A DNA stretch of 64,000 bases from Candidatus Harrisonbacteria bacterium. GTDB lineage: Bacteria; Patescibacteriota; Minisyncoccia; UBA6257; UBA11618. The notes under the pieces were generated by a model. It was given only the letters and a program-made list of their open reading frames with translations. It did not search any database and was not told the DNA's origin. Both the position numbers and the translations under genes were made by a program. This document shows, piece by piece, positions 1,711 through 64,000 of the stretch. The DNA lies in contig VGJO01000001.1 of NCBI GenBank assembly GCA_016867415.1, positions 148,312 to 212,311 of the forward strand. Reading direction: 5' to 3'. Numbering within the stretch: the first letter of the stretch is position 1; every line of letters starts with the position of its first letter.

Positions 1711-1720
1711 AATTTAATCC

Positions 1721-1750
1721 ATCATTCCAGACTTGATCTGGAATCTATAA
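1721..1750 (+). repeat. family-2 hairpin repeat subtype A (atcattccaga-cttga-tctggaatctataa)
   Basis: perfect 8-bp palindrome, 11 nt after grx stop and 4 nt before trxB ATG. Confidence 0.6.
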
Positions 1751-9256: not shown

Positions 9257-9375
9257 CCAAAGAACCCCTCCCTTCCCCTATAGTGACTATTCTGAGAAAA
9301 AAATCTTTTCCGAAGATAAAGGGAAAGTTCGCCGGAAACTTTCCTGTGTCACGGTAGGGAAAGAAGGGGTTCTGG
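9257..9375 (+). repeat. motif-A element copy A: 28-nt inverted repeats (ccaaagaacccctcccttcccctatagtgac / gtcacggtagggaaagaaggggttctgg) flanking nested hairpins
   Basis: direct reading; arms ~26/28 complementary; shares core with copies at 18239, 32894, 39471. Confidence 0.6.
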
Positions 9376-13426: not shown

Positions 13427-13437
13427 TTTTTTTGTAT

Positions 13438-13473
13438 TGTCATTCCGGCCACCGAGCCAGAATCCAGTACCTC
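13438..13473 (+). repeat. family-2 hairpin repeat (tgtcattccggcc-accgag-ccagaatccagtacctc)
   Basis: 12 nt after stop of 9950..13426; imperfect palindrome attccgg/ccagaat. Confidence 0.6.
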
Positions 13474-14645: not shown

Positions 14646-14675
14646 ACTATCTTATCTTGGATCCCTAGTTGGAAT

Positions 14676-16222: not shown

Positions 16223-16260
16223 TGTGTCATTCCGGGCCAAGATCCGGAATCCAGTACCTT
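16223..16260 (+). repeat. family-2 hairpin repeat (tgtgtcattccggg-ccaagat-ccggaatccagtacctt)
   Basis: perfect 7-bp palindrome attccgg/ccggaat; located 40 nt upstream of gap start on opposite strand. Confidence 0.6.
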
Positions 16261-16886: not shown

Positions 16887-17015
16887 AATTAAGCTCTTTA
16901 AATTGAGAGACATTACGCGTTTATACATTTCTAATAAATTTGTGGATGTGGTCGATTGGAGAGGCAGCGGCTCCGTAAGCCGTGCATCGAAGTTTGATTC
17001 TTTGTATCTACTTTT

Positions 17016-17087
17016 GTCGGGATAGATCAGTGGTAGGGCATAGGATTAAAAATCCAAATGTCGGAGGTTCAATTCCTTCACCCGGCT
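17016..17087 (+). ncRNA. tRNA-like gene with 7-nt anticodon loop UUAAAAA (anticodon AAA); possible pseudo-tRNA or tRNA-like module of a longer ncRNA
   Basis: cloverleaf: acceptor GTCGGGA/ACCCGGC (one A.A mismatch), D-arm GATC-AGTGGTA-GGGC, T-arm GGAGG-TTCAATT-CCTTC; unusual A34 anticodon; lies 125 nt downstream of promoter and 195 nt upstream of a strong terminator. Confidence 0.35.
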
Positions 17088-17280
17088 CTCGGTCTGAAGT
17101 CGCAAGTTACTTTGCCATTTAGATCGAAATCTCTCTTTGTCTATCGTCTTGATTTCCTTATTAGTCTTATACAAGCCCTGCGCTTGAGACTTTCCGAAAG
17201 GATTCCTAAAGGAAATGATTGACAAACTCCAGTCAACATCGAGTTCATTCCCTCGTTACTGGATGAGAGATGTTTCCTCT

Positions 17281-17337: not shown

Positions 17338-17462
17338 GAAATTGTAGGATTTTTTGGATGAAGTTTTGTAGTTCTTTTCGAGTATGTACCGGAGCATTCA
17401 AGAATTTGAGTGTGTGAAGATTAAGCTCAGAAAAAACTACAAAAATTCGACAAAAAGATCAG
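17338..17462 (+). repeat. family-1 structured element copy (arms attttttggatgaagttttgtagttctttt / aaaaaactacaaaaattcgacaaaaagat, core ...cggagcattc...gtgtgtgaag...)
   Basis: arms ~26/30 complementary; ends 24 nt before rpe ATG. Confidence 0.6.
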
Positions 17463-17485
17463 ACTTAATTTGTTATAATTAATTA

Positions 17486-18133: not shown

Positions 18134-18238
18134 GCTTACAGGCCGCATGGATATAATCGCCTTTACGGGCCGCAGGTGACGTGAGAATTATGTGCTCATA
18201 ATTTTCAGTTAATCCTTTCCAAGGACATAATAAAAATT

Positions 18239-18282
18239 CGCAGGAATTTTTTATGTGTTATGGCAGGGTAAAGAAGGGGTTC
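18239..18282 (+). repeat. hybrid element: family-1 5' flank (cgcaggaatttttt) fused to motif-A 28-mer (tgtgttatggcagggtaaagaaggggttc)
   Basis: direct reading; ~95 nt upstream of transketolase N ATG. Confidence 0.5.
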
Positions 18283-28509: not shown

Positions 28510-28631
28510 CACGCTAGCACCCAGCATAAGCGAAGTAATTTTGAGCTTATTTTCGTTCTTCTTTTCTAAAAAGGTACCGGAGCATACTACAGGAAGTATG
28601 TGAGGAACGTTTTTAGAAAAAAGGATGAGCC
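28510..28631 (+). repeat. family-1 element copy (subtype flank aagcgaagtaattttgag; core ggtaccggagcatac-tacaggaa-gtatgtgaggaac); truncated right arm; orphan ccaaaaatacgagc motif at 28717..28731
   Basis: read directly; sits in 16S 3' flank on the opposite strand. Confidence 0.55.
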
Positions 28632-28914
28632 TCCACTACTACTAGATAAACAAAGAAAAAGAAGAAACAGAATAATCAGTAGAAGAGAGATAAGGTCGGC
28701 TACACGAGCGAAAGAAGCCAAAAATACGAGCGAAGATAAATCCTTTCTTGTTGCCCCAAAAGGTTTTGTTTATCAAACAGAGGATAATCAAACAGTAAAG
28801 TAAGTGAACACATCAAACACTTCTTTATCAGTCCGGCATTGCCATTACAATGCTTGGATTTATCGTGTTATCGACTACTTGAGAAAAGAAAACAATAAAG
28901 TTTCTTTTCTTTTC

Positions 28915-30418
<1,504 letters not shown>

Positions 30419-30813: not shown

Positions 30814-30844
30814 ATCATCATCCTGAATTAAATTCAGGATCCAG
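30814..30844 (+). repeat. family-2 hairpin repeat, subtype B (atcatcatcctgaat-taaa-attcaggatccag)
   Basis: perfect 9-bp palindrome. Confidence 0.6.
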
Positions 30845-30929
30845 ACTTCTGCTGCTTCTGACCACTTCTAATGCCTTTACTCGTTCTTATTTCCTAATCT
30901 TTTCCGCTATACTATGTATTAGTATTTTT

Positions 30930-31056
30930 GCATCTCGCATGCGCAGGATTTTTAAGAAGAGTTTGGTTTATCTTCACGAGTTTCGCACAGGGTATTCTCT
31001 AAAAGTCTGTGAGTACAGAATGCAGTAAAAAATAAAAATATTTCAAAAATACAAGC
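30930..31056 (+). repeat. family-1 element copy (flank gcatctcgcatgcgcaggattttt; core ...gtctgtgagtacagaatgcag; 3' caaaaatacaagc 8 nt before ATG)
   Basis: read directly. Confidence 0.6.
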
Positions 31057-31064
31057 TTTTCCTT

Positions 31065-32166: not shown

Positions 32167-32832
32167 TTGAGAAAAAATATTTTTTCCACTCCCAGATGGG
32201 AGTGTTTTTTTACTTTTTACTTTGTTACAGTCTTACTTATGTTTCTAATGAGTTGGCCCCTTTCTCTTATTCTTCTTGTAGTTCTCTATTTTTTTTCTCT
32301 TACTCATCCTGGCCGCTTTTTTCTTATCCAGAAAAAACACCTAATTTTCTTTATTCTTATTGCTGTATTTTTTATAAAAAATACCCTCTCTAGTTATTTT
32401 CTCTATGTCTCTTGGGCTCAAGATTCCTTCGCTTACTACTTCCTCCCTCCCTACACTCCCTTCACTTATTTTATCCGCTACTCCCTCACTCATTATTGGT
32501 TTAATTTTCTTCTTTCGGTGATCTTTGCTTATTTTGCCCTTATTTTTTTTCAGTGGCTCAATCGTCGCCGCAACCATCTCCTTTTCCAGCCCGACGAGCT
32601 CTACTTTCCCTCCTTTATTATTCTCATTCTCGGTCATCCTGCCTGGCTCATTTTCTTGATCCTCACCCCCATCGCTTTTATCCTCTACTCCCTTCTTCTG
32701 TTTTTAATTAATAAAAAGACCGATCGCGTCTCCTTCTACCACCTCTTCTACCCCTTAGCTTTTCTAAGCCTCGCCCTCCATCTCTCCCTCCTCCACTCCC
32801 TCTCCTACTCCATCCTCGGCATCGGTAGGTAG
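32167..32832 (+). CDS. polytopic membrane protein of unknown function, immediately after the pilin gene
   Basis: 221 aa, 6-7 hydrophobic helices, Tyr/Phe-rich; lacks A24 prepilin-peptidase Asp motifs. Confidence 0.4.
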   Translation: MRKNIFSTPRWECFFTFYFVTVLLMFLMSWPLSLILLVVLYFFSLTHPGRFFLIQKKHLIFFILIAVFFIKNTLSSYFLYVSWAQDSFAYYFLPPYTPFTYFIRYSLTHYWFNFLLSVIFAYFALIFFQWLNRRRNHLLFQPDELYFPSFIILILGHPAWLIFLILTPIAFILYSLLLFLINKKTDRVSFYHLFYPLAFLSLALHLSLLHSLSYSILGIGR

Positions 32833-32893
32833 TCTCTAACTCAGAATCTATATAAACAAAAAGACCAGAGCGCAGCTCCGGCCTACCACAAAT

Positions 32894-32951
32894 AAAGAGA
32901 AAATCCACTGGAGATTTCCCCGTGTCACGGTGGGGAAAAGGAAGGGTTTTT
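32894..32951 (+). repeat. motif-A element copy B (hairpin aaaatcca-c-tggagattt then ccccgtgtcacggtggggaaaaggaagggttttt)
   Basis: ccgtg-t-cacgg perfect palindrome inside the conserved 28-mer; ~100 nt upstream of pilB. Confidence 0.55.
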
Positions 32952-34756: not shown

Positions 34757-35967
34757 TGAAAAAATTCCGCTACACTGCCAATCGTTCTGATGGCCGCCTC
34801 ATGACCGGCGATATTGATGCCGCAAGCGCCGACCAGGTCCTCACCTATCTTCGTGGCCGCGATCTTCAGCCGCTCTCAATCAGCGAGCTTAGCACTTCGA
34901 TCCTCAAAAAAGATATTTCCTTTTTTAGCTCTATTTCCGAGATGGATAAGATTTTTCTTTGCCGCCATCTCTCCCTTATGCTCCGTCTCGGCACCGATCT
35001 TTTTCATGCGCTAGAAATCCTAATTGAAGACACTGATAATAAAGTTTTAAAGAGTATCCTTCTTGAGATTCAATCTTCTCTCGAGCGTGGTCAGCCTTTC
35101 TATCTTACTTTCGCGAATTATCCTCAACATTTTTCTCCTGTATTTGTAAATCTTATCGAGGCTGGTGAGGCCGCCGGAACCCTTGATGAATCCTTCGAAA
35201 ATCTTGCCGTCATACTCGCAAAGTCTGATGATCTGAGGAAAAAGATTCGTGGTGCCCTGATCTACCCCGCGATTCTCACCATTGGCTCCATCTCCGTCCT
35301 CTTCTTCCTTGTCTCTTTCGCTATCCCACGCATTGCCACTGTTTTTTCTGAAACCACCGCCGAGATCCCCTTTTTTTCTCGCATAGTCTTTGCAATCGGT
35401 AATTTTTTCTCCGCTTATCTCCTCATCATTCTTCTTTTTTTCATTGCTCTCGGCACCGGTCTTTTTTATTTCTTTTTAAAGACTCCTACTGGCCGTCTTT
35501 TCTTTCTCCATATCTTGAGCCGTATTCCCGTGATCAAAAAAGTCGTTCTCGAGATTGGTATAGAGCGCTTCTCCAGCACCTTGAGCTCGCTTCTTAAGGC
35601 GAATGTCCCGATTATCCGCTCCCTAGAGATCACCGCTAATTCCTCTGGTAATGAGGATATCAAAAATTCCGTCCTCCGGGTCGCCCACGAGGGCATCAAT
35701 AAAGGTCTCACCCTAGGTGAAGCCTTCAAGCGGGAAAAATCTTTTCCAAATACTGTCACGAGCCTCATCGTCATCTCCGAACGTGCCGGCCGTCTTGAAG
35801 AAGTCCTCCATTCCCTCTCCTCCTTTTATGAGTCCGAAATTGACGCCTCCTTGAAAGCCATGATCGCCTTCATTGAGCCCGTCCTTCTCGTTATTATTGG
35901 CGCCGTCGTCGCTCTTATCGCCCTCTCCGTCATCGTTCCAATCTACCAGCTCGTCGGCCAGTTCTGA
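34756..35967 (+). CDS. pilC: type IV pilus platform protein PilC (GspF family)
   Basis: two T2SSF repeats ('FLCRHLSLMLRLGTDLFHAL', 'FSSTLSSLLKANVPIIRSL'), three TM segments. Confidence 0.9.
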   Translation: MKKFRYTANRSDGRLMTGDIDAASADQVLTYLRGRDLQPLSISELSTSILKKDISFFSSISEMDKIFLCRHLSLMLRLGTDLFHALEILIEDTDNKVLKSILLEIQSSLERGQPFYLTFANYPQHFSPVFVNLIEAGEAAGTLDESFENLAVILAKSDDLRKKIRGALIYPAILTIGSISVLFFLVSFAIPRIATVFSETTAEIPFFSRIVFAIGNFFSAYLLIILLFFIALGTGLFYFFLKTPTGRLFFLHILSRIPVIKKVVLEIGIERFSSTLSSLLKANVPIIRSLEITANSSGNEDIKNSVLRVAHEGINKGLTLGEAFKREKSFPNTVTSLIVISERAGRLEEVLHSLSSFYESEIDASLKAMIAFIEPVLLVIIGAVVALIALSVIVPIYQLVGQF

Positions 35968-36025
35968 CGGTCTTTTTGCCTTAAGGTAAAAAGACCGTCA
36001 TCCTGAACTTAATTCAGGATCCAGG
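35966..36025 (+). repeat. 12-bp hairpin (gacggtcttttt/aaaaagaccgtc, overlaps pilC stop) followed by family-2 hairpin subtype B (gtcatcctgaac-ttaa-ttcaggatccagg)
   Basis: read directly. Confidence 0.6.
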
Positions 36026-36108
36026 CACCTGCCTTCTTAAGAAGACATTCTAAATCCCTATCTTTTTCTGTATTTTTCTAGTTAAAAATCCTTACCTCAC
36101 CTACTCAT

Positions 36109-36230: not shown

Positions 36231-37103
36231 ATGAACGTAAACAAGACGATCCTTTTCAGAGATTCCGAAGATCGGCACGCGGGGGTGGTGATTGTAGCAG
36301 GTAGAGATCCCTTCGAAAGAAGCGATTCTTTTCAAAAGATTTGTCACATTCACGCGAAGGGTGATCGGCAATATGAAAAGGCTTTTCTTCTCAATCCCAA
36401 CGATACTGCTTTTGCGGCTCAACCCTTTTATGTCCGCAAGCCAGACGAAGAAGGAAAAGAAGTTGATTTTGCTCTTGCTGTTCTTAATGAACGATTGAGC
36501 GGCAAACCAGCAACTTCCGGTCTCGCCTTCGGTCGAAGTGGAAAACCAGACTATCCATCCCTCTTCCGCCCCCTTCCTACGAAGTATGTCATTATAGTCC
36601 CCCAGGGCTACACCTTCGAGTCATTCTGGATGACCTTCTGGGAAAAGTATGAAAACCACCCGAAGCGCTACTTCTATGAGAATCTCTCTACTGCGCAAAA
36701 CTTCTCGCAGTCCGTAGTGCTTCGCCCCGGCCAAAAGATCGAAGTGACCGTTTTTGAGCAAACAGTGGATCGACTAATGACCTCATCAGTGGAAAGAGTG
36801 AACTTTCTAAAATCCATCCCCGGCAACATCTTCACTGGTCTTTCCGGATCGGCCCTCATGTTTGATCAGCACTGGGAAAAACTCCCTAAAGGCCGAGCCT
36901 ACTGCTCTTTTGACGAGAAAGACCGCCTCCCTGCCCTCGAGTACTTCCACCGGGTGCCGTGCTTTGACTGCCACGCCGATGGGTACTTCCACTTCTTCCG
37001 CTTGGGCTTCGGGGGCAGCTGGGATTCGGACTGCCTGCTCCTGTCGTTCCGCGACTTATCTGCCGAAGCGACAGTGGAGGCAGAGAAGTCCTCGGATGCT
37101 TAG
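36231..37103 (+). CDS. hypothetical protein (290 aa) with canonical AGGAGG Shine-Dalgarno, own promoter and terminator; inserted between pilC and the minor pilins
   Basis: ataGGAGGacatgccATG; GC-richer codon usage; no signal peptide; terminator at 37148. Confidence 0.55.
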   Translation: MNVNKTILFRDSEDRHAGVVIVAGRDPFERSDSFQKICHIHAKGDRQYEKAFLLNPNDTAFAAQPFYVRKPDEEGKEVDFALAVLNERLSGKPATSGLAFGRSGKPDYPSLFRPLPTKYVIIVPQGYTFESFWMTFWEKYENHPKRYFYENLSTAQNFSQSVVLRPGQKIEVTVFEQTVDRLMTSSVERVNFLKSIPGNIFTGLSGSALMFDQHWEKLPKGRAYCSFDEKDRLPALEYFHRVPCFDCHADGYFHFFRLGFGGSWDSDCLLLSFRDLSAEATVEAEKSSDA

Positions 37104-37147
37104 GCACTTGTCTCCGATCAGTGCCTCAGATCCTTTGGTTCTTGATT

Positions 37148-37181
37148 CCCGTTTGTGTACACGCAAACGGGAATTTTTTTA
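37148..37181 (+). terminator. intrinsic terminator cccgtttg-tgtacacg-caaacggg + AATTTTTTTA
   Basis: 8-bp stem then T7. Confidence 0.75.
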
Positions 37182-37224: not shown

Positions 37225-37791
37225 ATGCCTCCTTTCTTTAAGAAAAACTTCGGCGTTACTTTGATTGAGCTTCTCATCGCTATGGGCGCCACGGTCATTA
37301 TTTCTACCTCCGCCTTCCTCTCCCTCTCTGGCATCCCCGGCCGCGAAGCCGTCGTTGACGCTACCCTAAAGCTTGCCGCCGATCTTCGCGATGTCCAATT
37401 CCGCTCAATTACCCAAGATGACGCCTCCTACTGGGGTGTCTACGTTGACTATGGCGGCGGCACCGCGCCTCTTTACAAACTCTACTCCTTGACCTCTCTT
37501 CCTGCTAATAGCTACAGAAATAAACCTACTGACCCCCCTCCTAATTCCACTTTAGAAAAATCTATTTCTCTCGATCCCAATCTTCGCTTCATCACCCCAG
37601 GCGCTACCAATAATCTCGTCCTTATCTTTGATCAATTAACCGGGCTTCCGGCTTCTTTCACTAATTTTAATTGTGGAAGCGTCGACGATGTCACTCCCCG
37701 CCCCATCCGGATTATCAATACCAATAATTACCAAGGTGAGGTCGATATTTACTGCTCCGGCCGCATCGACGTCACCTTCGCTCAACTATAA
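37225..37791 (+). CDS. type IV pilin-like protein (minor pilin/pseudopilin)
   Basis: 'MPPFFKKNFGVTLIELLIAMGATVII' class III signal; ATG at 37225 within the longer track ORF 36862..37791. Confidence 0.7.
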   Translation: MPPFFKKNFGVTLIELLIAMGATVIISTSAFLSLSGIPGREAVVDATLKLAADLRDVQFRSITQDDASYWGVYVDYGGGTAPLYKLYSLTSLPANSYRNKPTDPPPNSTLEKSISLDPNLRFITPGATNNLVLIFDQLTGLPASFTNFNCGSVDDVTPRPIRIINTNNYQGEVDIYCSGRIDVTFAQL

Positions 37792-37795
37792 AGCA

Positions 37796-37827
37796 TTGTC
37801 ATTCTGGACTCGACCCAGAATCTATAA
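37796..37827 (+). repeat. family-2 hairpin repeat subtype A (ttgtcattctgga-ctcgac-ccagaatctataa)
   Basis: perfect 7-bp palindrome attctgg/ccagaat, 5 nt after stop. Confidence 0.65.
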
Positions 37828-37840
37828 GAAAGAATCCACT

Positions 37841-38473
37841 ATGAACTCCAGTAAAAATTCAGGACAATCTCTTATTGAACTCCTCCTTGCCCTCTCTGTC
37901 GCTGTAGTCGCTATCATCTCCGGTTTTCTTGTCTTGCAGTTTCTCATTAAGCGCGCCTCCGATGAGGGTGCTTCTCAAATGGCCGCCTATCTCCGTGAAG
38001 AAACACTTAAAAAAATGCATTTCTTAAGTAATATAAGTTATACTGCTCTAATCGATCCGTCTCTTGACTCAACCGTCGACTATAAATTCGTTACCGCCGC
38101 AAACGGCACCATCTCTCTTACTCCTGGTATTGATACGCAAGTGGTAAGTGGTAAACCTTATTCCGTAGCTTTTCGTATTCTTCCTGTGTATCGTGATGCG
38201 AATAAAAATATTGTCTCAAGTGGCAACGTCGAAGATAAAAATACTCGGCAAGTAAATTTGGCAATCTCCTGGACTGGTCCAGACGGTCCGGTATCTCTCT
38301 TTTCCTCTACTTATCTCACTCGCGATCGTAATTATTCCTTCCATCAGACCGACTGGAGCGGCGGGGCGACTATCCCTGCCGACCCCATCTTTTCTGGATC
38401 GTCGTATAATAAGTATAAGCAGGGGACTGATATTGATGTTACGACCTCCCCCGGCCGCGTCACCGTCCCATAG
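37841..38473 (+). CDS. type IV pilin-like protein (minor pilin/pseudopilin)
   Basis: 'MNSSKNSGQSLIELLLALSVAVVAIISGF' class III signal; ATG at 37841. Confidence 0.7.
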   Translation: MNSSKNSGQSLIELLLALSVAVVAIISGFLVLQFLIKRASDEGASQMAAYLREETLKKMHFLSNISYTALIDPSLDSTVDYKFVTAANGTISLTPGIDTQVVSGKPYSVAFRILPVYRDANKNIVSSGNVEDKNTRQVNLAISWTGPDGPVSLFSSTYLTRDRNYSFHQTDWSGGATIPADPIFSGSSYNKYKQGTDIDVTTSPGRVTVP

Positions 38474-38476
38474 TAA

Positions 38477-38507
38477 TTGTCATTTCGGCCTCCAAGCTAG
38501 AATCTAG
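38477..38507 (+). repeat. family-2 hairpin repeat variant (ttgtcatttcggcctccaagctagaatctag)
   Basis: shares ttcggcctccaagctRgaat with copy at 46248. Confidence 0.5.
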
Positions 38508-38530
38508 CGCCTAACTTCCAATCTCTCAAA

Positions 38531-39403: not shown

Positions 39404-39438
39404 CTTATCATTCTGATTCCCCGAGCCAGAATCTATAA
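39404..39438 (+). repeat. family-2 hairpin repeat subtype A (cttatcattctga-ttccccgagc-cagaatctataa)
   Basis: read directly, 1 nt after stop. Confidence 0.6.
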
Positions 39439-39470
39439 AAAAGGCTGGAGCATCTCGTAGGCTTGCCAAT

Positions 39471-39534
39471 CCGAAGATAATGGGAAAGTCCTCTAAAGAC
39501 TTTCCTGTTTCACGGTAAGGAAGTGTTTTTTCTG
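39471..39534 (+). repeat. motif-A element copy C (ccgaagataatgggaaagtcc-tctaaa-ggactttcc tgtttcacggtaaggaagtgtttttt)
   Basis: perfect 9-bp hairpin ggaaagtcc/ggactttcc then conserved 28-mer; ~70 nt upstream of 39602. Confidence 0.55.
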
Positions 39535-42742: not shown

Positions 42743-42763
42743 TCTTCGGCCGCCTTTAGATGG

Positions 42764-42794
42764 CTGTCATCCTGAACTTAATTTAGGATCCAGC
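42764..42794 (+). repeat. family-2 hairpin repeat subtype B (ctgtcatcctgaac-ttaa-tttaggatccagc)
   Basis: read directly, 22 nt after pth stop. Confidence 0.6.
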
Positions 42795-42847
42795 CGATTG
42801 CAGACCTTGTATGAAACATTTGTAATTAAATATTTCCCTGCTTCTCT

Positions 42848-45276: not shown

Positions 45277-45404
45277 ACATCGCCACGCGCAGGATTTTTC
45301 GAGGAAATTTTGATTTTCTTTGCGAGTACTGGACGGAGCATGCTGCGGAAAGCCTGTGAGTATGGAACGCAGCAAAAAATCGAAAGTTACCGAAAAAGAC
45401 AAGC
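45277..45404 (+). repeat. family-1 element copy (flank cgccacgcgcaggattttt; core gagtactggacggagcatgc...cctgtgagtatggaacgcag; 3' ccgaaaaagacaagc)
   Basis: read directly, 27 nt before HIT ATG. Confidence 0.6.
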
Positions 45405-45430
45405 TTTAAAAATTAAAAGTAAGGAACATT

Positions 45431-46247: not shown

Positions 46248-46276
46248 ATTGTTACTTCGGCCTCCAAGCTGGAATT
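46248..46276 (+). repeat. family-2 hairpin repeat variant (ttgttacttcggcctccaagctggaattc)
   Basis: read directly. Confidence 0.45.
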
Positions 46277-46347
46277 CAAAAACAAGCCTTTAAAAGAAAG
46301 GTGCTAAAAAAATAATGTTTCATGGAAAGTATTTCTGAATTACTAAT

Positions 46348-50211: not shown

Positions 50212-50417
50212 TTCCCTCAAGGAATTAGTCTTCCTAAAATTGATCTAGGATCCATAATTCAGCCTCCTTAAGGAAGTATTTAAAAATATTTTTCTTATTT
50301 CTTTATTTCTTTTAAATCTCCAAAAAACCTATTCCATATACTAAAAAACTGTCGTAAAAGCAATCTTTTATTTTACGACAATGTTTTTTAAAAATTTTTA
50401 TTATAAATAAGACATTA

Positions 50418-50630
50418 TGCAGCACAAGTGAAGTAATTTTGGATAAAGTTTGAAATTTATTTTTGAGAATGAGCCTCTACTACCAAAAGATAGTCATATT
50501 GAATGCAAAGTCTATAGAATCAGAAGTAAAGATCAGAAAGAGGAAAGATGAGCGCAAGGGAGTATATATAAAGAAGAGATTGTGAGTATGCAGTACAGAA
50601 AAAAATCCCAAAATCCAAAAAAATACGAGC
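50418..50630 (+). repeat. long (~213 nt) family-1 element copy (flank gcagcacaagtgaagtaattttgg; core ...gagtatatataaagaagagattgtgagtatgcagtacag; 3' ccaaaaaaatacgagc) located in the ftsA-ftsZ gap, not upstream of a + gene
   Basis: read directly. Confidence 0.55.
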
Positions 50631-50642
50631 ATTTAAAAAATA

Positions 50643-55852: not shown

Positions 55853-55988
55853 GTCGCGCTACCACAGCGAAATAATTTTGGAGGGTATTTCGATTTTCTT
55901 TGCGAGCAGCGAACGGAGCATACAAGAACTTTAGTATGTGAGTACGCAGCGGATCAAAAAAATTAAAATACCCTCCAAAAGTACGAGC
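55853..55988 (+). repeat. family-1 element copy (flank gtcgcgctaccacagcgaaataattttgg; arms ggagggtatttcgattttcttt / aaaaaaattaaaataccctcc; core gagcagcgaacggagcatac-aagaacttta-gtatgtgagtacgcagcgg; 3' ccaaaagtacgagc)
   Basis: arms end in perfect 11-bp ggagggtattt/aaataccctcc. Confidence 0.7.
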
Positions 55989-58894: not shown

Positions 58895-58950
58895 CTTGTC
58901 ATTCCGGCTTCACTCATTCTTAGTGAAGGCAGGTCATCTTGGACTTGACC
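58895..58950 (+). repeat. degenerate family-2-like hairpin cluster directly after nrdA stop (cttgtcattccggcttcac-tcattct-tagtgaaggcagg...)
   Basis: read directly. Confidence 0.4.
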
Positions 58951-62143: not shown

Positions 62144-64000
62144 TTAATATCCCTTATCTTTTAATTCATTTAATCTCTCTTGTATTACTGCCTCTAGTCT
62201 TTCGGTAGTAGCTATTAGTAGATTTCTCGTCCCCGCCTTCACTGTCGTCGTAAGTTTCGGCGTAAACCCAATATTATTTTTATTAATGACATTCATTGCT
62301 TTATAGTATACCCGCTTGCTTCCCAAGGTTCCTGGTGTCCCTGAGATCTGCAAGAAGCAACTTTCCATATCCGAAAAAGCCTCCACCGTCAACATCGGTG
62401 GCACGACAATATCTTTCTTATTAGCTTTTTTGACCGCTATCTCAAGGCCGCTGTAAGCCCGCCCTAAAGAATATTTAGTCGTCGCCTCAATCATGCGGGT
62501 AATGGCGAGGATCACCAAGTCTTTATGTTTTTTTAATCTATCCTCCGCATCAAGCAGTAGAATAGCGCTCTCAATCGCTGCAATATTTTCCTTAATCACT
62601 TCACTCCCTCCCGCCGCCATAAGACATATCGGCATCAGCGAGTAATCTCGCAGTAACTCCTCTGGCTTCTTTTCTTTTTTTACTTTTTTCTTTGATGGGG
62701 GATTAAGAATAGAAAGTCCGGAATTATCAGTCGTTTCTTCTACGTTAAATAATCCTTTGAAATTATTTACCAAATTTTCAAAAAAAGTCGTTTCTTCTTC
62801 TGTCGGTTGCTTTTTATACTCTGGCAAATAATATTCTTCTTCATAATCAGTGACGTAGGTATTTTGCTTTGCTGAAATCTCCGGTATCACATCATACTTA
62901 GCTAATTTTTCCCCCCAGTCTTTAATTACTCGGAAGCAATAAGAGCTCTCCACTCGGAAAGCGGGCCCGGCTGTGAGAGAAAGATCAAATAACCCTCCTT
63001 CATTTGCATTTATATTGGTCCTATTGGAAAATTTTTCATTGCTTTCCAAATACTTTTGCTCAATAGTCTTTCCATGGTTGGGTACGACATCTTTTGGATC
63101 TTCGGTTGATATTCGGGCATAATCCCCATCATCCGGAAGGTTATTATAGTATTGAAAAAGTCCAGATTTATTCGTCACGTCATTATACGTTTCCCCAGCA
63201 CCTTCCGCATCGCAAGTACCCACTCGCTCCGCTGTCTGGAGTTTGAAGCGTTCTTGAGAAATAAGATCCTTGTCGCTTACATGAAGGATGAGGCGTAAGC
63301 GAAAATTAGCATTGCCCTCATGAAAGAAAGTGGTATCGAGCGGAGTTTTATCTGGCGCTATCGGTCTCCCCGCTTTAGTCGTCTTCGTCATTGAGAAAAA
63401 TCTATATCCTGAAAGCCTTATGCTCGGAATGATTACTCCGCTGCTACCTCCACCTCCGCTACTACCTCCGCTGCTACCTCCACCTCCGCTACTACCTCCG
63501 CTGCTACCTCCACCTCCGCTACTACCTCCGCTGCTACCTCCACCTCCGCTACTACCTCCGCCTCCGCTACTACCTCCGCTGCTACCTCCACCTCCTCCAC
63601 CTTCGTCACCACCTCCGCCTCCTCCACCTTCGTCTCCTCCACCACCCGAAGCCGCTTCTGTTATAAAATTCCATGTGTCAGCATCATTGATCCCTGAATA
63701 ATTATTATTAGAAAGATCTTGAAATGCCCCATTCGAAATATTGATGTGATAGTTATGAGAGTTAGAAAGATTCCCGATTGGATTAATAGTTACTGTATCT
63801 CCTGATATGGTTACTTCTGATGAGTTCACGTTGATTGTCGCCGCCGTTGAGTTATTTGTGTCGTCTATAATGCTAATAGATCCACTTCCTTTTTTAATAT
63901 TTTCTGAAAAGGTGATGACAAAGTCGCTCGCAATTGAGACATTTGTGCTGTTGTCTGCGGGGGATAAAGTGCTGATAGTTGGCCCCCCGCTTCCGATCAC
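62144..64000 (-). CDS. surface protein, C-terminal ~618 aa of a gene continuing past the window end: bacterial Ig-like (SbsA/Big_5-type) domain, Gly/Ser-rich linker, unknown C-terminal domain
   Basis: 'LSPADNSTNVSIASDFVITFSENI...VTINPIGNLSNSHNYHINISNGAFQDLSNNN' Ig-like pattern; linker encoded by tandem 30-nt repeats. Confidence 0.55.
   Translation of the reverse strand: MIGSGGPTISTLSPADNSTNVSIASDFVITFSENIKKGSGSISIIDDTNNSTAATINVNSSEVTISGDTVTINPIGNLSNSHNYHINISNGAFQDLSNNNYSGINDADTWNFITEAASGGGGDEGGGGGGGDEGGGGGGSSGGSSGGGGSSGGGGSSGGSSGGGGSSGGSSGGGGSSGGSSGGGGSSGVIIPSIRLSGYRFFSMTKTTKAGRPIAPDKTPLDTTFFHEGNANFRLRLILHVSDKDLISQERFKLQTAERVGTCDAEGAGETYNDVTNKSGLFQYYNNLPDDGDYARISTEDPKDVVPNHGKTIEQKYLESNEKFSNRTNINANEGGLFDLSLTAGPAFRVESSYCFRVIKDWGEKLAKYDVIPEISAKQNTYVTDYEEEYYLPEYKKQPTEEETTFFENLVNNFKGLFNVEETTDNSGLSILNPPSKKKVKKEKKPEELLRDYSLMPICLMAAGGSEVIKENIAAIESAILLLDAEDRLKKHKDLVILAITRMIEATTKYSLGRAYSGLEIAVKKANKKDIVVPPMLTVEAFSDMESCFLQISGTPGTLGSKRVYYKAMNVINKNNIGFTPKLTTTVKAGTRNLLIATTERLEAVIQERLNELKDKGY
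63433..63600. repeat. tandem ~30-nt DNA repeat (ccgctgctacctccacctccgctactacct, ~5 units) encoding GGGGSSGGSS linker
   Basis: periodicity read directly in sequence. Confidence 0.7.

Follow-up and report, generated by a model that had tools for sequence, protein, structure and literature searches.

Results

Gene content of the window and accompanying repeats

Besides a 16S rRNA gene and genes of central metabolism, the window analysed in this study (the whole 64-kb stretch of DNA from a Harrisonbacteria genome) contains a type IV pilus gene cluster, the PilC protein of which has its best named homologs (~50% identity) in Colwellbacteria, Harrisonbacteria, Wolfebacteria and the "Patescibacteria group". 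No 23S rRNA gene adjoins the 16S rRNA gene, a release-factor gene occupying the place where it would be expected, so that the rRNA genes appear to be unlinked. Two adjacent tRNA-like genes were detected with low scores (36 and 40 bits), of which ARAGORN recognised the second only, as a tRNA-Phe with an unusual AAA anticodon. A gene for a surface protein with a Big_5 (bacterial Ig-like) domain holds a tandem repeat with a 30-nt period and 12- and 18-nt sub-steps. Within the pilus region a perfect 12-bp hairpin overlaps the PilC stop codon, while a 14-bp hairpin with a T-run follows ORF 36231-37103, and the next pilin-like gene after that hairpin probably starts at 37225 rather than at 36862.

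Three families of dispersed repeats are described here. The first consists of units of approximately 125 nt placed immediately ahead of start codons, with a few bases between the end of the repeat and the ATG. Its sequence takes the form CAGCGCAGGATTTTT...GAGCATAC...AAGTATGTGAGYAC...CAGAAAAAA...AAAAATAC, and a shared promoter or leader module is its probable role. The second, termed D8, is a structured 53-nt repeat (GGGAAAGTY...RACTTTCC-TGTGTCACGGTAGGGAA) located approximately 110 nt upstream of four genes, for which no Rfam match was obtained at gathering scores. Three of the four D8 repeats are preceded by an AAAAAG-CCAGAGCG...GGCC unit and two of the four by a copy or a 3' remnant of the third family, a neighbourhood which suggests mosaic units like those of NIME or BIME. 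The third family, a hairpin repeat of approximately 30 nt, is the subject of this study (Table 1).

Table 1. Hairpin repeats and other features of the 64-kb window; E-values refer to models R1 and R2 described in the text
Feature	Coordinates	Strand	Type and sequence	Context	R1 E	R2 E
Full-length copy 1718	1718..1750	+	subtype A, ATCAT-TCCAG...CTGGA-ATC-TATAAAAAA	7 nt past glutaredoxin stop; ends 3 nt before next start codon	6e-9	1e-5
Full-length copy 13436	13436..13469	+	subtype C, GTCATTCCGGC...GCCAGAATCCAGTACC	9 nt past stop of 1158-aa ORF	7e-8	3.5e-4
Full-length copy 16223	16223..16256	+	subtype C	divergent region, 39 nt from GAPDH(-) start; no preceding + gene	4e-8	1e-6
Full-length copy 30814	30814..30846	+	subtype B, ATCATCCTGAATTAAATTCAGGATCCAG	divergent region, 16S rRNA(-) / response-regulator gene(+)	7e-8	3e-8
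Full-length copy 35994	35994..36026	+	subtype B, GTCATCCTGAACTTAATTCAGGATCCAG; top match of both models	26 nt past PilC stop; strain contig L150 terminates here	9e-10	2e-11
Full-length copy 37795 (flagged by the first-pass annotation)	37795..37827	+	subtype A, GTCATTCTGGACTCGACCCAGAATCTATAA	3 nt past pilin-like gene stop; 13-14 nt before next pilin-like start at 37841	5e-9	1e-7
Full-length copy 38476	38476..38509	+	near subtype C, decayed stem	2 nt past stop	7e-6	0.16
Full-length copy 39404	39404..39438	+	subtype A, decayed	begins on base directly after stop codon; D8 repeat next	3e-4	3.2
Full-length copy 42763	42763..42795	+	subtype B, one G-T wobble	20 nt past peptidyl-tRNA hydrolase stop	6e-9	2e-10
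Full-length copy 50225	50225..50257	+	near subtype B, decayed, GTCTTCCTAAAATTGATCTAGGATCCAT	13 nt past FtsA stop, convergent genes either side	8e-4	0.45
Marginal degenerate copy	46248..46281	+	GTTACTTCGGCCTCCAAGCTGGAATTCA		about 4	
3' remnant	32836..32856	+	subtype A, TCAGAATCTATATAAAC	after stop at 32832, then D8 repeat	undetected	undetected
Two partial heads	58897..58945	+	TTGTCATTCCGGC... and GGTCATCTTGGACTTGACCCG	past ribonucleotide reductase stop	below threshold	below threshold
Weak possible copy	2747	-			below threshold	
~125-nt repeat	1341-1462, 27295-27415, 28529-28622, 30939-31058, 45285-45412, 55865-55987; partial: 17405-17463, 50581-50638			directly 5' of start codons		
53-nt D8 repeat	9309-9361, 18218-18270, 32885-32937, 39470-39522			upstream of four genes		
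16S rRNA gene	28913-30418	-				
tRNA-like genes	16942-17012, 17016-17088	+				
Tandem repeat	63406-63645			in ORF 62144-64000 (-), surface protein gene		
12-bp hairpin	35966-35999		GACGGTCTTTTT...AAAAAGACCGTC	overlaps PilC stop, abuts copy 35994		
14-bp hairpin with T-run	37144-37175			after ORF 36231-37103		

Inventory of the hairpin repeats

A covariance model (R1), built from an alignment (A2) of 36 diverse copies that were in part selected for pairing, was applied without filters to every position of the window. It returned ten full-length copies at E ≤ 8e-4, all of them on the + strand (binomial P = 0.002) and none on the - strand. The pattern TCATYYYRRN{3,9}YYRGRATCYA has nine matches in the 64-kb window, all on the + strand, where 0.01 would be expected from dinucleotide-preserving shuffles. 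No Rfam family matched the copies, either at gathering scores across the whole window or at E ≤ 1 between 35.9 and 39.6 kb.

The first-pass annotation had listed at least twelve copies, nine of which are robust; that at 46248 is marginal, with 89% identity to the core of copy 38476 (repeat family D20), and those at 14652 and 58895 fall below threshold, while copy 50225 had been overlooked. The latter lies outside the training set of R1 and was also recovered in repeat families D10 and D17. No intact hairpin of the family is present between 58895 and 58990, the two partial heads found there surrounding an unrelated hairpin, TTCACTCATTCTTAGTGAAG. Comparable left-half fragments precede full copies by approximately 25 nt at loci L011, L012, L020 and L092 of other phyla, and it may be that such partial heads are footprints of cleavage and rejoining.

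The consensus architecture comprises (C/T)GTC, an imperfect palindrome of 7-9 bp starting with AT, a short loop and C-YAG. The (T)GTCAT head that had been attributed to every copy applies to six of the ten, as three carry ATCAT and copy 50225 carries GTCTT; the 5' flank is thus GTC in seven copies, the decayed 50225 being counted, and ATC in three. A C immediately 3' of the palindrome is present in all ten and is followed by CAG or TAG (6/10), TAT (3/10) or CAT (1/10). Stems measure 7-9 bp and loops 3-8 nt. The division into subtypes A, B and C with their respective tails (CTATAA..., CCAGNC and CCAGTACC) stands as it was originally described.

Hairpin structure and covariation

The compensatory changes in the palindrome arms noted at the outset were borne out in alignment A2, in which both sides have changed in seven of the eight stem pairs and 98% of cells pair; none of 500 shuffles reached the covariation score, and register shifts of one to three columns came nowhere near it. 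When elements were selected by their flanks only, with no pairing criterion, 100 of 188 presented six out of six Watson-Crick inner pairs. Among the clear members of this set G-T pairs outnumber A-C pairs (32 versus 15), as would be expected if the forward strand folds and not if the duplex is recognised. The T and C of the GTC head are invariant in A2, and GTC and the C following the palindrome are invariant or nearly so.

As DNA, six of the ten window copies fold well (-4.5 to -6.8 kcal/mol; -6.4 kcal/mol for copy 1718) while the other four are decayed. Copy 13436, with one C-A mismatch in its stem, has a weak fold of -2.5 kcal/mol, and copy 38476 has G-T wobbles and a C-A mismatch, its hairpin not being the minimum-free-energy fold. 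Such coexistence of intact and decayed copies would be expected of a population of weakly selected insertions. The RNA folds of the intact copies range from -7.5 to -16 kcal/mol.

Relationship to the Ssn nucleases and their target motifs

The repeats correspond to a motif described recently, the NTS (CGTCATTCCCGCGMAVGCGGGAATCYRG), which belongs to a broader class of Ssn-related motifs or SRM (Chenal et al., Nat Commun 2025, PMC11893778). Its partner SsnA is a 94-aa single-domain GIY-YIG protein (cd10448). The forward strand of the NTS forms a hairpin when the DNA is single-stranded, and it is this hairpin that Ssn binds, the C just 3' of the palindrome being the most important base; cleavage occurs just upstream of the palindrome, where the three preceding bases matter most, and is limited to forward-strand ssDNA, as dsDNA, RNA and the reverse strand are left uncut (PMC11893778). 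In N. meningitidis, cutting by Ssn lowers the integration of NTS-bearing transforming ssDNA; the NTS-ssnA-NTS arrangement resembles an insertion sequence, and its authors liken the system to REP/RAYT (PMC11893778).

Subtype C of the window (TGTCATTCCGG...CCGGAATCCAG) has the GTC head and the post-palindrome C of the published NTS. In loci fetched from other genomes, small GIY-YIG ORFs of approximately 95 aa (Pfam PF01541, E = 4e-20) have motifs within approximately 150 nt on either side, heads pointing outward (L023, L072, L096, L103, L087, L115, L011 and L145); by our own reading of the alignment, their Y/Y/E residues align with Y6, Y17 and E64 of SsnA. Locus L103 originates from a Saccharibacteria genome, and L145, a further SRM-ssn-SRM unit, from a metagenome. 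In L023, L072, L096, L103 and L145 the outward GTCAT heads are reminiscent of the inverted repeats that bound an insertion sequence, here a very small one. Model R2, trained solely on the ssn-flanking motifs of other genomes, retrieved seven window copies at E-values from 2e-11 to 3.5e-4 and three weak ones, and subtype-B copies identical to those of the window flank ssn genes in other genomes. Membership of the window repeats in the NTS/SRM family is accordingly well supported by sequence and structure.

The published degenerate pattern, HGTCWYN(0-2)YYVSBRHN(0-5)WNVSBRGN(0-2)RNCYNB, has no match in the window. This failure is uninformative because the pattern demands G/C at inner stem positions and is narrower than the family; as it misses 20 of 21 ssn-flanking motifs, as well as 30 of 36 diverse members, it was rejected as a membership criterion. 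Since most A+T-rich members escape it, the published counts probably understate the family.

A six-frame HMM search for an ssn/GIY-YIG gene in the window and the 9.4 kb upstream of it (L121), approximately 73 kb together, was negative, and Pfam scans of 60 window ORFs yielded no transposase or nuclease candidate and no Y1_Tnp domain. A metagenome scan with the loop variant of this lineage, TCATCCTGAAYTWAATTYAGGATCCAG, returned 21 loci, none from the window organism. Ssn-like proteins are present in CPR lineages, namely Levybacteria, Roizmanbacteria, Saccharimonadales and the Patescibacteria group. A cognate nuclease is predicted to be present and to act in this organism.

The REP-like palindromes proposed by the first-pass annotation come closest to this identity, in that the window elements belong to a described family of hairpin repeats with a set orientation and a nuclease of their own, yet the partner is the small GIY-YIG nuclease Ssn, whose published activity is confined to ssDNA, and not a RAYT. 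A classical REP/BIME moved by a RAYT (Y1 HUH) transposase, or relics of IS200/IS605 ends, would account for extragenic palindromes with an oriented head and for the avoidance of divergent promoter regions seen in other genomes (27 copies in convergent regions versus 5 in divergent ones). This explanation is nevertheless highly improbable, as the head is GTC-AT and not of the GTAG/CTAC type, the scanned window ORFs include no Y1 transposase, and the gene adjacent to the motif in other genomes encodes a GIY-YIG nuclease.

Distribution across bacteria

The exact subtype-B sequence (TCATCCTGAA-N3-7-TTYAGGATCCAG) was searched in the GTDB species representatives (one genome per bacterial or archaeal species, 596 Gb) and was found at no fewer than 120 loci, at least 120 thus standing against approximately 0.3 chance matches by our own estimate. 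Among the matches listed are Sphingomonadaceae (Sphingomonas), Shewanella, Sulfurovum/Sulfurimonas, Saccharibacteria, Nomurabacteria, Kazan, Berkelbacteria, Doudnabacteria, Dependentiae, Margulisbacteria, Armatimonadota, Treponema, Rhodothermales, Pedobacter, Prevotella and others, the base 5' of TCAT being nearly always G in these matches. The same loci hold many more hairpins with identical flanks and other arms (ATGCTGA, ATTCCGG, ACCCTGA, ATTCCCG or ATTCCAG), the loop of which is conserved as CTTGA, CTTGT or GAAG. Since the exact sequence occurs in many phyla, the element is not specific to a genome or phylum, and the view of it as a feature local to the Harrisonbacteria genome had to be abandoned. 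In IMG/VR the subtype-B pattern was matched twice in 2.9 million viral contigs, and phages are therefore not obvious carriers.

The palindromic core, together with the location of six of the ten copies inside 12 kb spanning the type IV pilus gene cluster (a post hoc observation), could also be reconciled with double-stranded operators for a transcription factor or with DNA uptake sequences for a competence pilus. We give very little credence to either: the arms vary freely with pairing kept, which indicates a constraint on structure and not on sequence, G-T pairs exceed A-C pairs, and the same motifs are found in phyla whose regulators are unrelated, while the strict one-strand orientation and asymmetric flanks are unlike a symmetric operator.

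Placement relative to genes and insertion in this lineage

Eight of the ten copies begin 0-26 nt past the stop codon of a + strand gene, where random intergenic placement would give 12% (P = 1.6e-6), the exceptions being copies 16223 and 30814, which lie within divergent regions, in front of GAPDH(-) and 16S(-), respectively, and follow no + strand gene. A motif scan of the 64-kb window with orientation and stop-codon statistics thereby upheld the post-stop placement reported earlier, all copies being on the + strand and enriched behind stops. Of the six copies in the pilus region, four separate pseudopilin genes from their neighbours, giving an NTS-gene-NTS arrangement.

All ten window copies are solo, none having an inverted partner. 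In other genomes, an inverted partner is present less than 200 nt away for 190 of 282 copies (67%), and the loci hold similar numbers on each strand; orientation in tandem gene contexts is unbiased there (40 co-oriented versus 37 anti-oriented). As in the window, copies elsewhere also have co-oriented gene ends within 30 nt of their head side more often than anti-oriented ones (54 versus 24). The published model does not explain the solo one-strand layout of the window. The + strand GC skew is negative (-0.06 to -0.28) throughout positions 1-64000, though approximately 50 of the 63 genes lie on that strand; usually, the G-rich strand carries co-oriented genes, the opposite of what the window presents. 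Because the skew is negative throughout, with no sign switch, it does not separate a replication-linked from a transcription-linked orientation of the copies.

Two syntenic relatives (L152 and L153, PilC ~55% identical) have the same gene order, with pil genes overlapping or abutting, and contain no SRM at E < 0.05. In the window, these pil junctions are opened up and accommodate copies 35994, 37795, 38476 and 39404; all but the first of these lie 0-3 nt past a stop codon. Since the syntenic relatives with abutting pilus genes lack them, the copies are lineage-specific insertions. Short-read contigs of the window organism repeatedly end inside copies (several, for example, break inside copy 1718), which implies that identical k-mers are present at other places in the genome. 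Essentially identical contigs (99.9-100%) are found in several public samples, and no presence/absence variants were detected among these; the organism is represented in ENA ERZ27247963 (contig k141_1603434), Logan SRR7990525 and JGI 3300020198; copy 30814 was additionally found in the 99%-identical strain contig L150.

The sense orientation of most copies just behind stop codons raises the alternative of a primary function at the RNA level, and it had been suggested that the hairpins are 3'-UTR stabilisers, RNase processing sites or U-tract-independent terminators. As terminators lacking a U-tract, barriers to 3'-exonucleases or processing sites at mRNA 3' ends, they would be expected where eight of the ten are located, and the RNA folds of the intact copies point the same way; in CPR loci, likewise, the gene ends found within 30 nt upstream are more often co-oriented than anti-oriented (11 versus 3). 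The REP elements of E. coli stabilise upstream mRNA, and translation is lowered when a REP lies no more than approximately 15 nt from a stop codon. Such a role as the primary identity of the repeats is, however, improbable. No copy is followed by a T-run, the downstream sequence being CCAG... or CTATAAAAAA, and none overlaps a terminator-like site, which agrees with the lack of a U-tract noted in the first-pass annotation. The unpaired flanks GTC...C-YAG, needless for an RNA hairpin, are kept across phyla and match the determinants of Ssn, which does not bind the RNA form of the motif (PMC11893778). Furthermore, two of the ten copies have no preceding + strand gene, four are decayed, several occupy junctions within the pilus operon at which the genes overlap in relatives, and orientation in tandem contexts elsewhere is unbiased.

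Two conventional readings of the copies were also discarded. Intrinsic terminators were rejected, as none of the 30 terminator-like sites between 30.6 and 50.5 kb coincides with a copy (20 ± 5 such sites would be expected, so that they are not enriched). A sigma-70 promoter in subtype A, extending from TTGTCA to TATAAG 21 nt later, would have too long a spacer.

Discussion

Employing covariance models and comparisons across genomes, it was possible to assign the hairpin repeats of this window to the NTS/SRM family. The explanation which we hold to be very probable as a whole combines this membership with a cognate Ssn encoded elsewhere, spread in the manner of REP elements and selection for positions behind stop codons. 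The cognate Ssn would be encoded elsewhere in the genome and would recognise its sites whenever replication, transcription or DNA uptake exposes the + strand in single-stranded form. The elements may spread as non-autonomous, REP-like passengers, and selection in a compact genome would retain only those insertions that lie just behind stops and clear of the start signals of the next gene. Ssn is not known to mobilise the motifs in any genome. Given the sense orientation just past stops, side effects at the RNA level are possibilities.

There is a smaller, though appreciable, chance that Ssn-type hairpins have become fixed as solo, one-orientation post-stop sites around individual pseudopilin genes of the competence-type pilus cluster and would then be more than selfish repeats, either as cut sites or as RNA hairpins. 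In the former case they would be strand-specific cut sites shaping which taken-up ssDNA recombines at the pilus locus, and in the latter they would have been co-opted as RNA 3' hairpins inside the pilus operon. If they were fixed in this way, the uniform strand would result either from insertion into the strand exposed by replication or transcription or from selection acting on that strand, an origin that has not been described for the NTS/SRM family.

What is new here is the CPR host and what is unusual is the solo one-strand post-stop layout, the kind of element being already known. An apparently CPR-specific "post-stop-codon hairpin" thereby acquires a testable identity as the target of a site-specific ssDNA nuclease family, and Ssn/SRM motifs are seen to reach the ultra-small genomes of Patescibacteria at approximately one copy per 6 kb. 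The motif-free syntenic relatives represent direct evidence that the motifs arrived as insertions which pried overlapping genes apart. The layout of the window provides a natural case in which spread via the replication-exposed strand can be set against selection through transcription, and it could help to establish whether the motifs affect how DNA is taken up and recombined by organisms believed to rely on scavenged DNA.

Comparison with known systems

The closest likeness is to the NTS/SRM elements themselves, with which the window repeats share (C/T)GTC, the AT..palindrome..AT core and C-YAG, as well as being oriented, extragenic, multi-copy and endowed with covarying arms; window copies bracket genes for surface structures in an NTS-gene-NTS arrangement, as in Neisseria. 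They differ in that their stems are more A+T-rich than the published pattern permits, in that they are solo, confined to one strand and mostly adjoin stop codons with no ssn in the approximately 73 kb searched, and in their host, a member of the Patescibacteria/CPR, a group unnamed in the main text of PMC11893778.

The ATTCC...GGAAT palindrome core of the Neisseria dRS3/NIME elements is that of subtypes A and C, although the exact ATTCCC-N8-GGGAAT is absent and the window arms are ATTCCGG, ATTCTGG or ATCCTGAA. Two window copies are followed by D8-family units, a hint of mosaic structure as in NIMEs, yet the window has no inverted pairs flanking repeat units. With the REP/BIME and RAYT systems of E. 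coli and Pseudomonas the repeats have in common short extragenic hairpins, a dedicated nuclease that recognises ssDNA and clustering after gene ends, while the enzyme is GIY-YIG and not HUH Y1, the head is another one and the window contains no RAYT gene. Integron attC sites, finally, are likewise ssDNA hairpins recognised by structure, co-oriented, with variable arms and located right after ORFs; the window repeats, in contrast, lack the R''/R' GTTRRRY core, an integrase and a cassette array, and their neighbours are housekeeping and pilus genes whose synteny is conserved.
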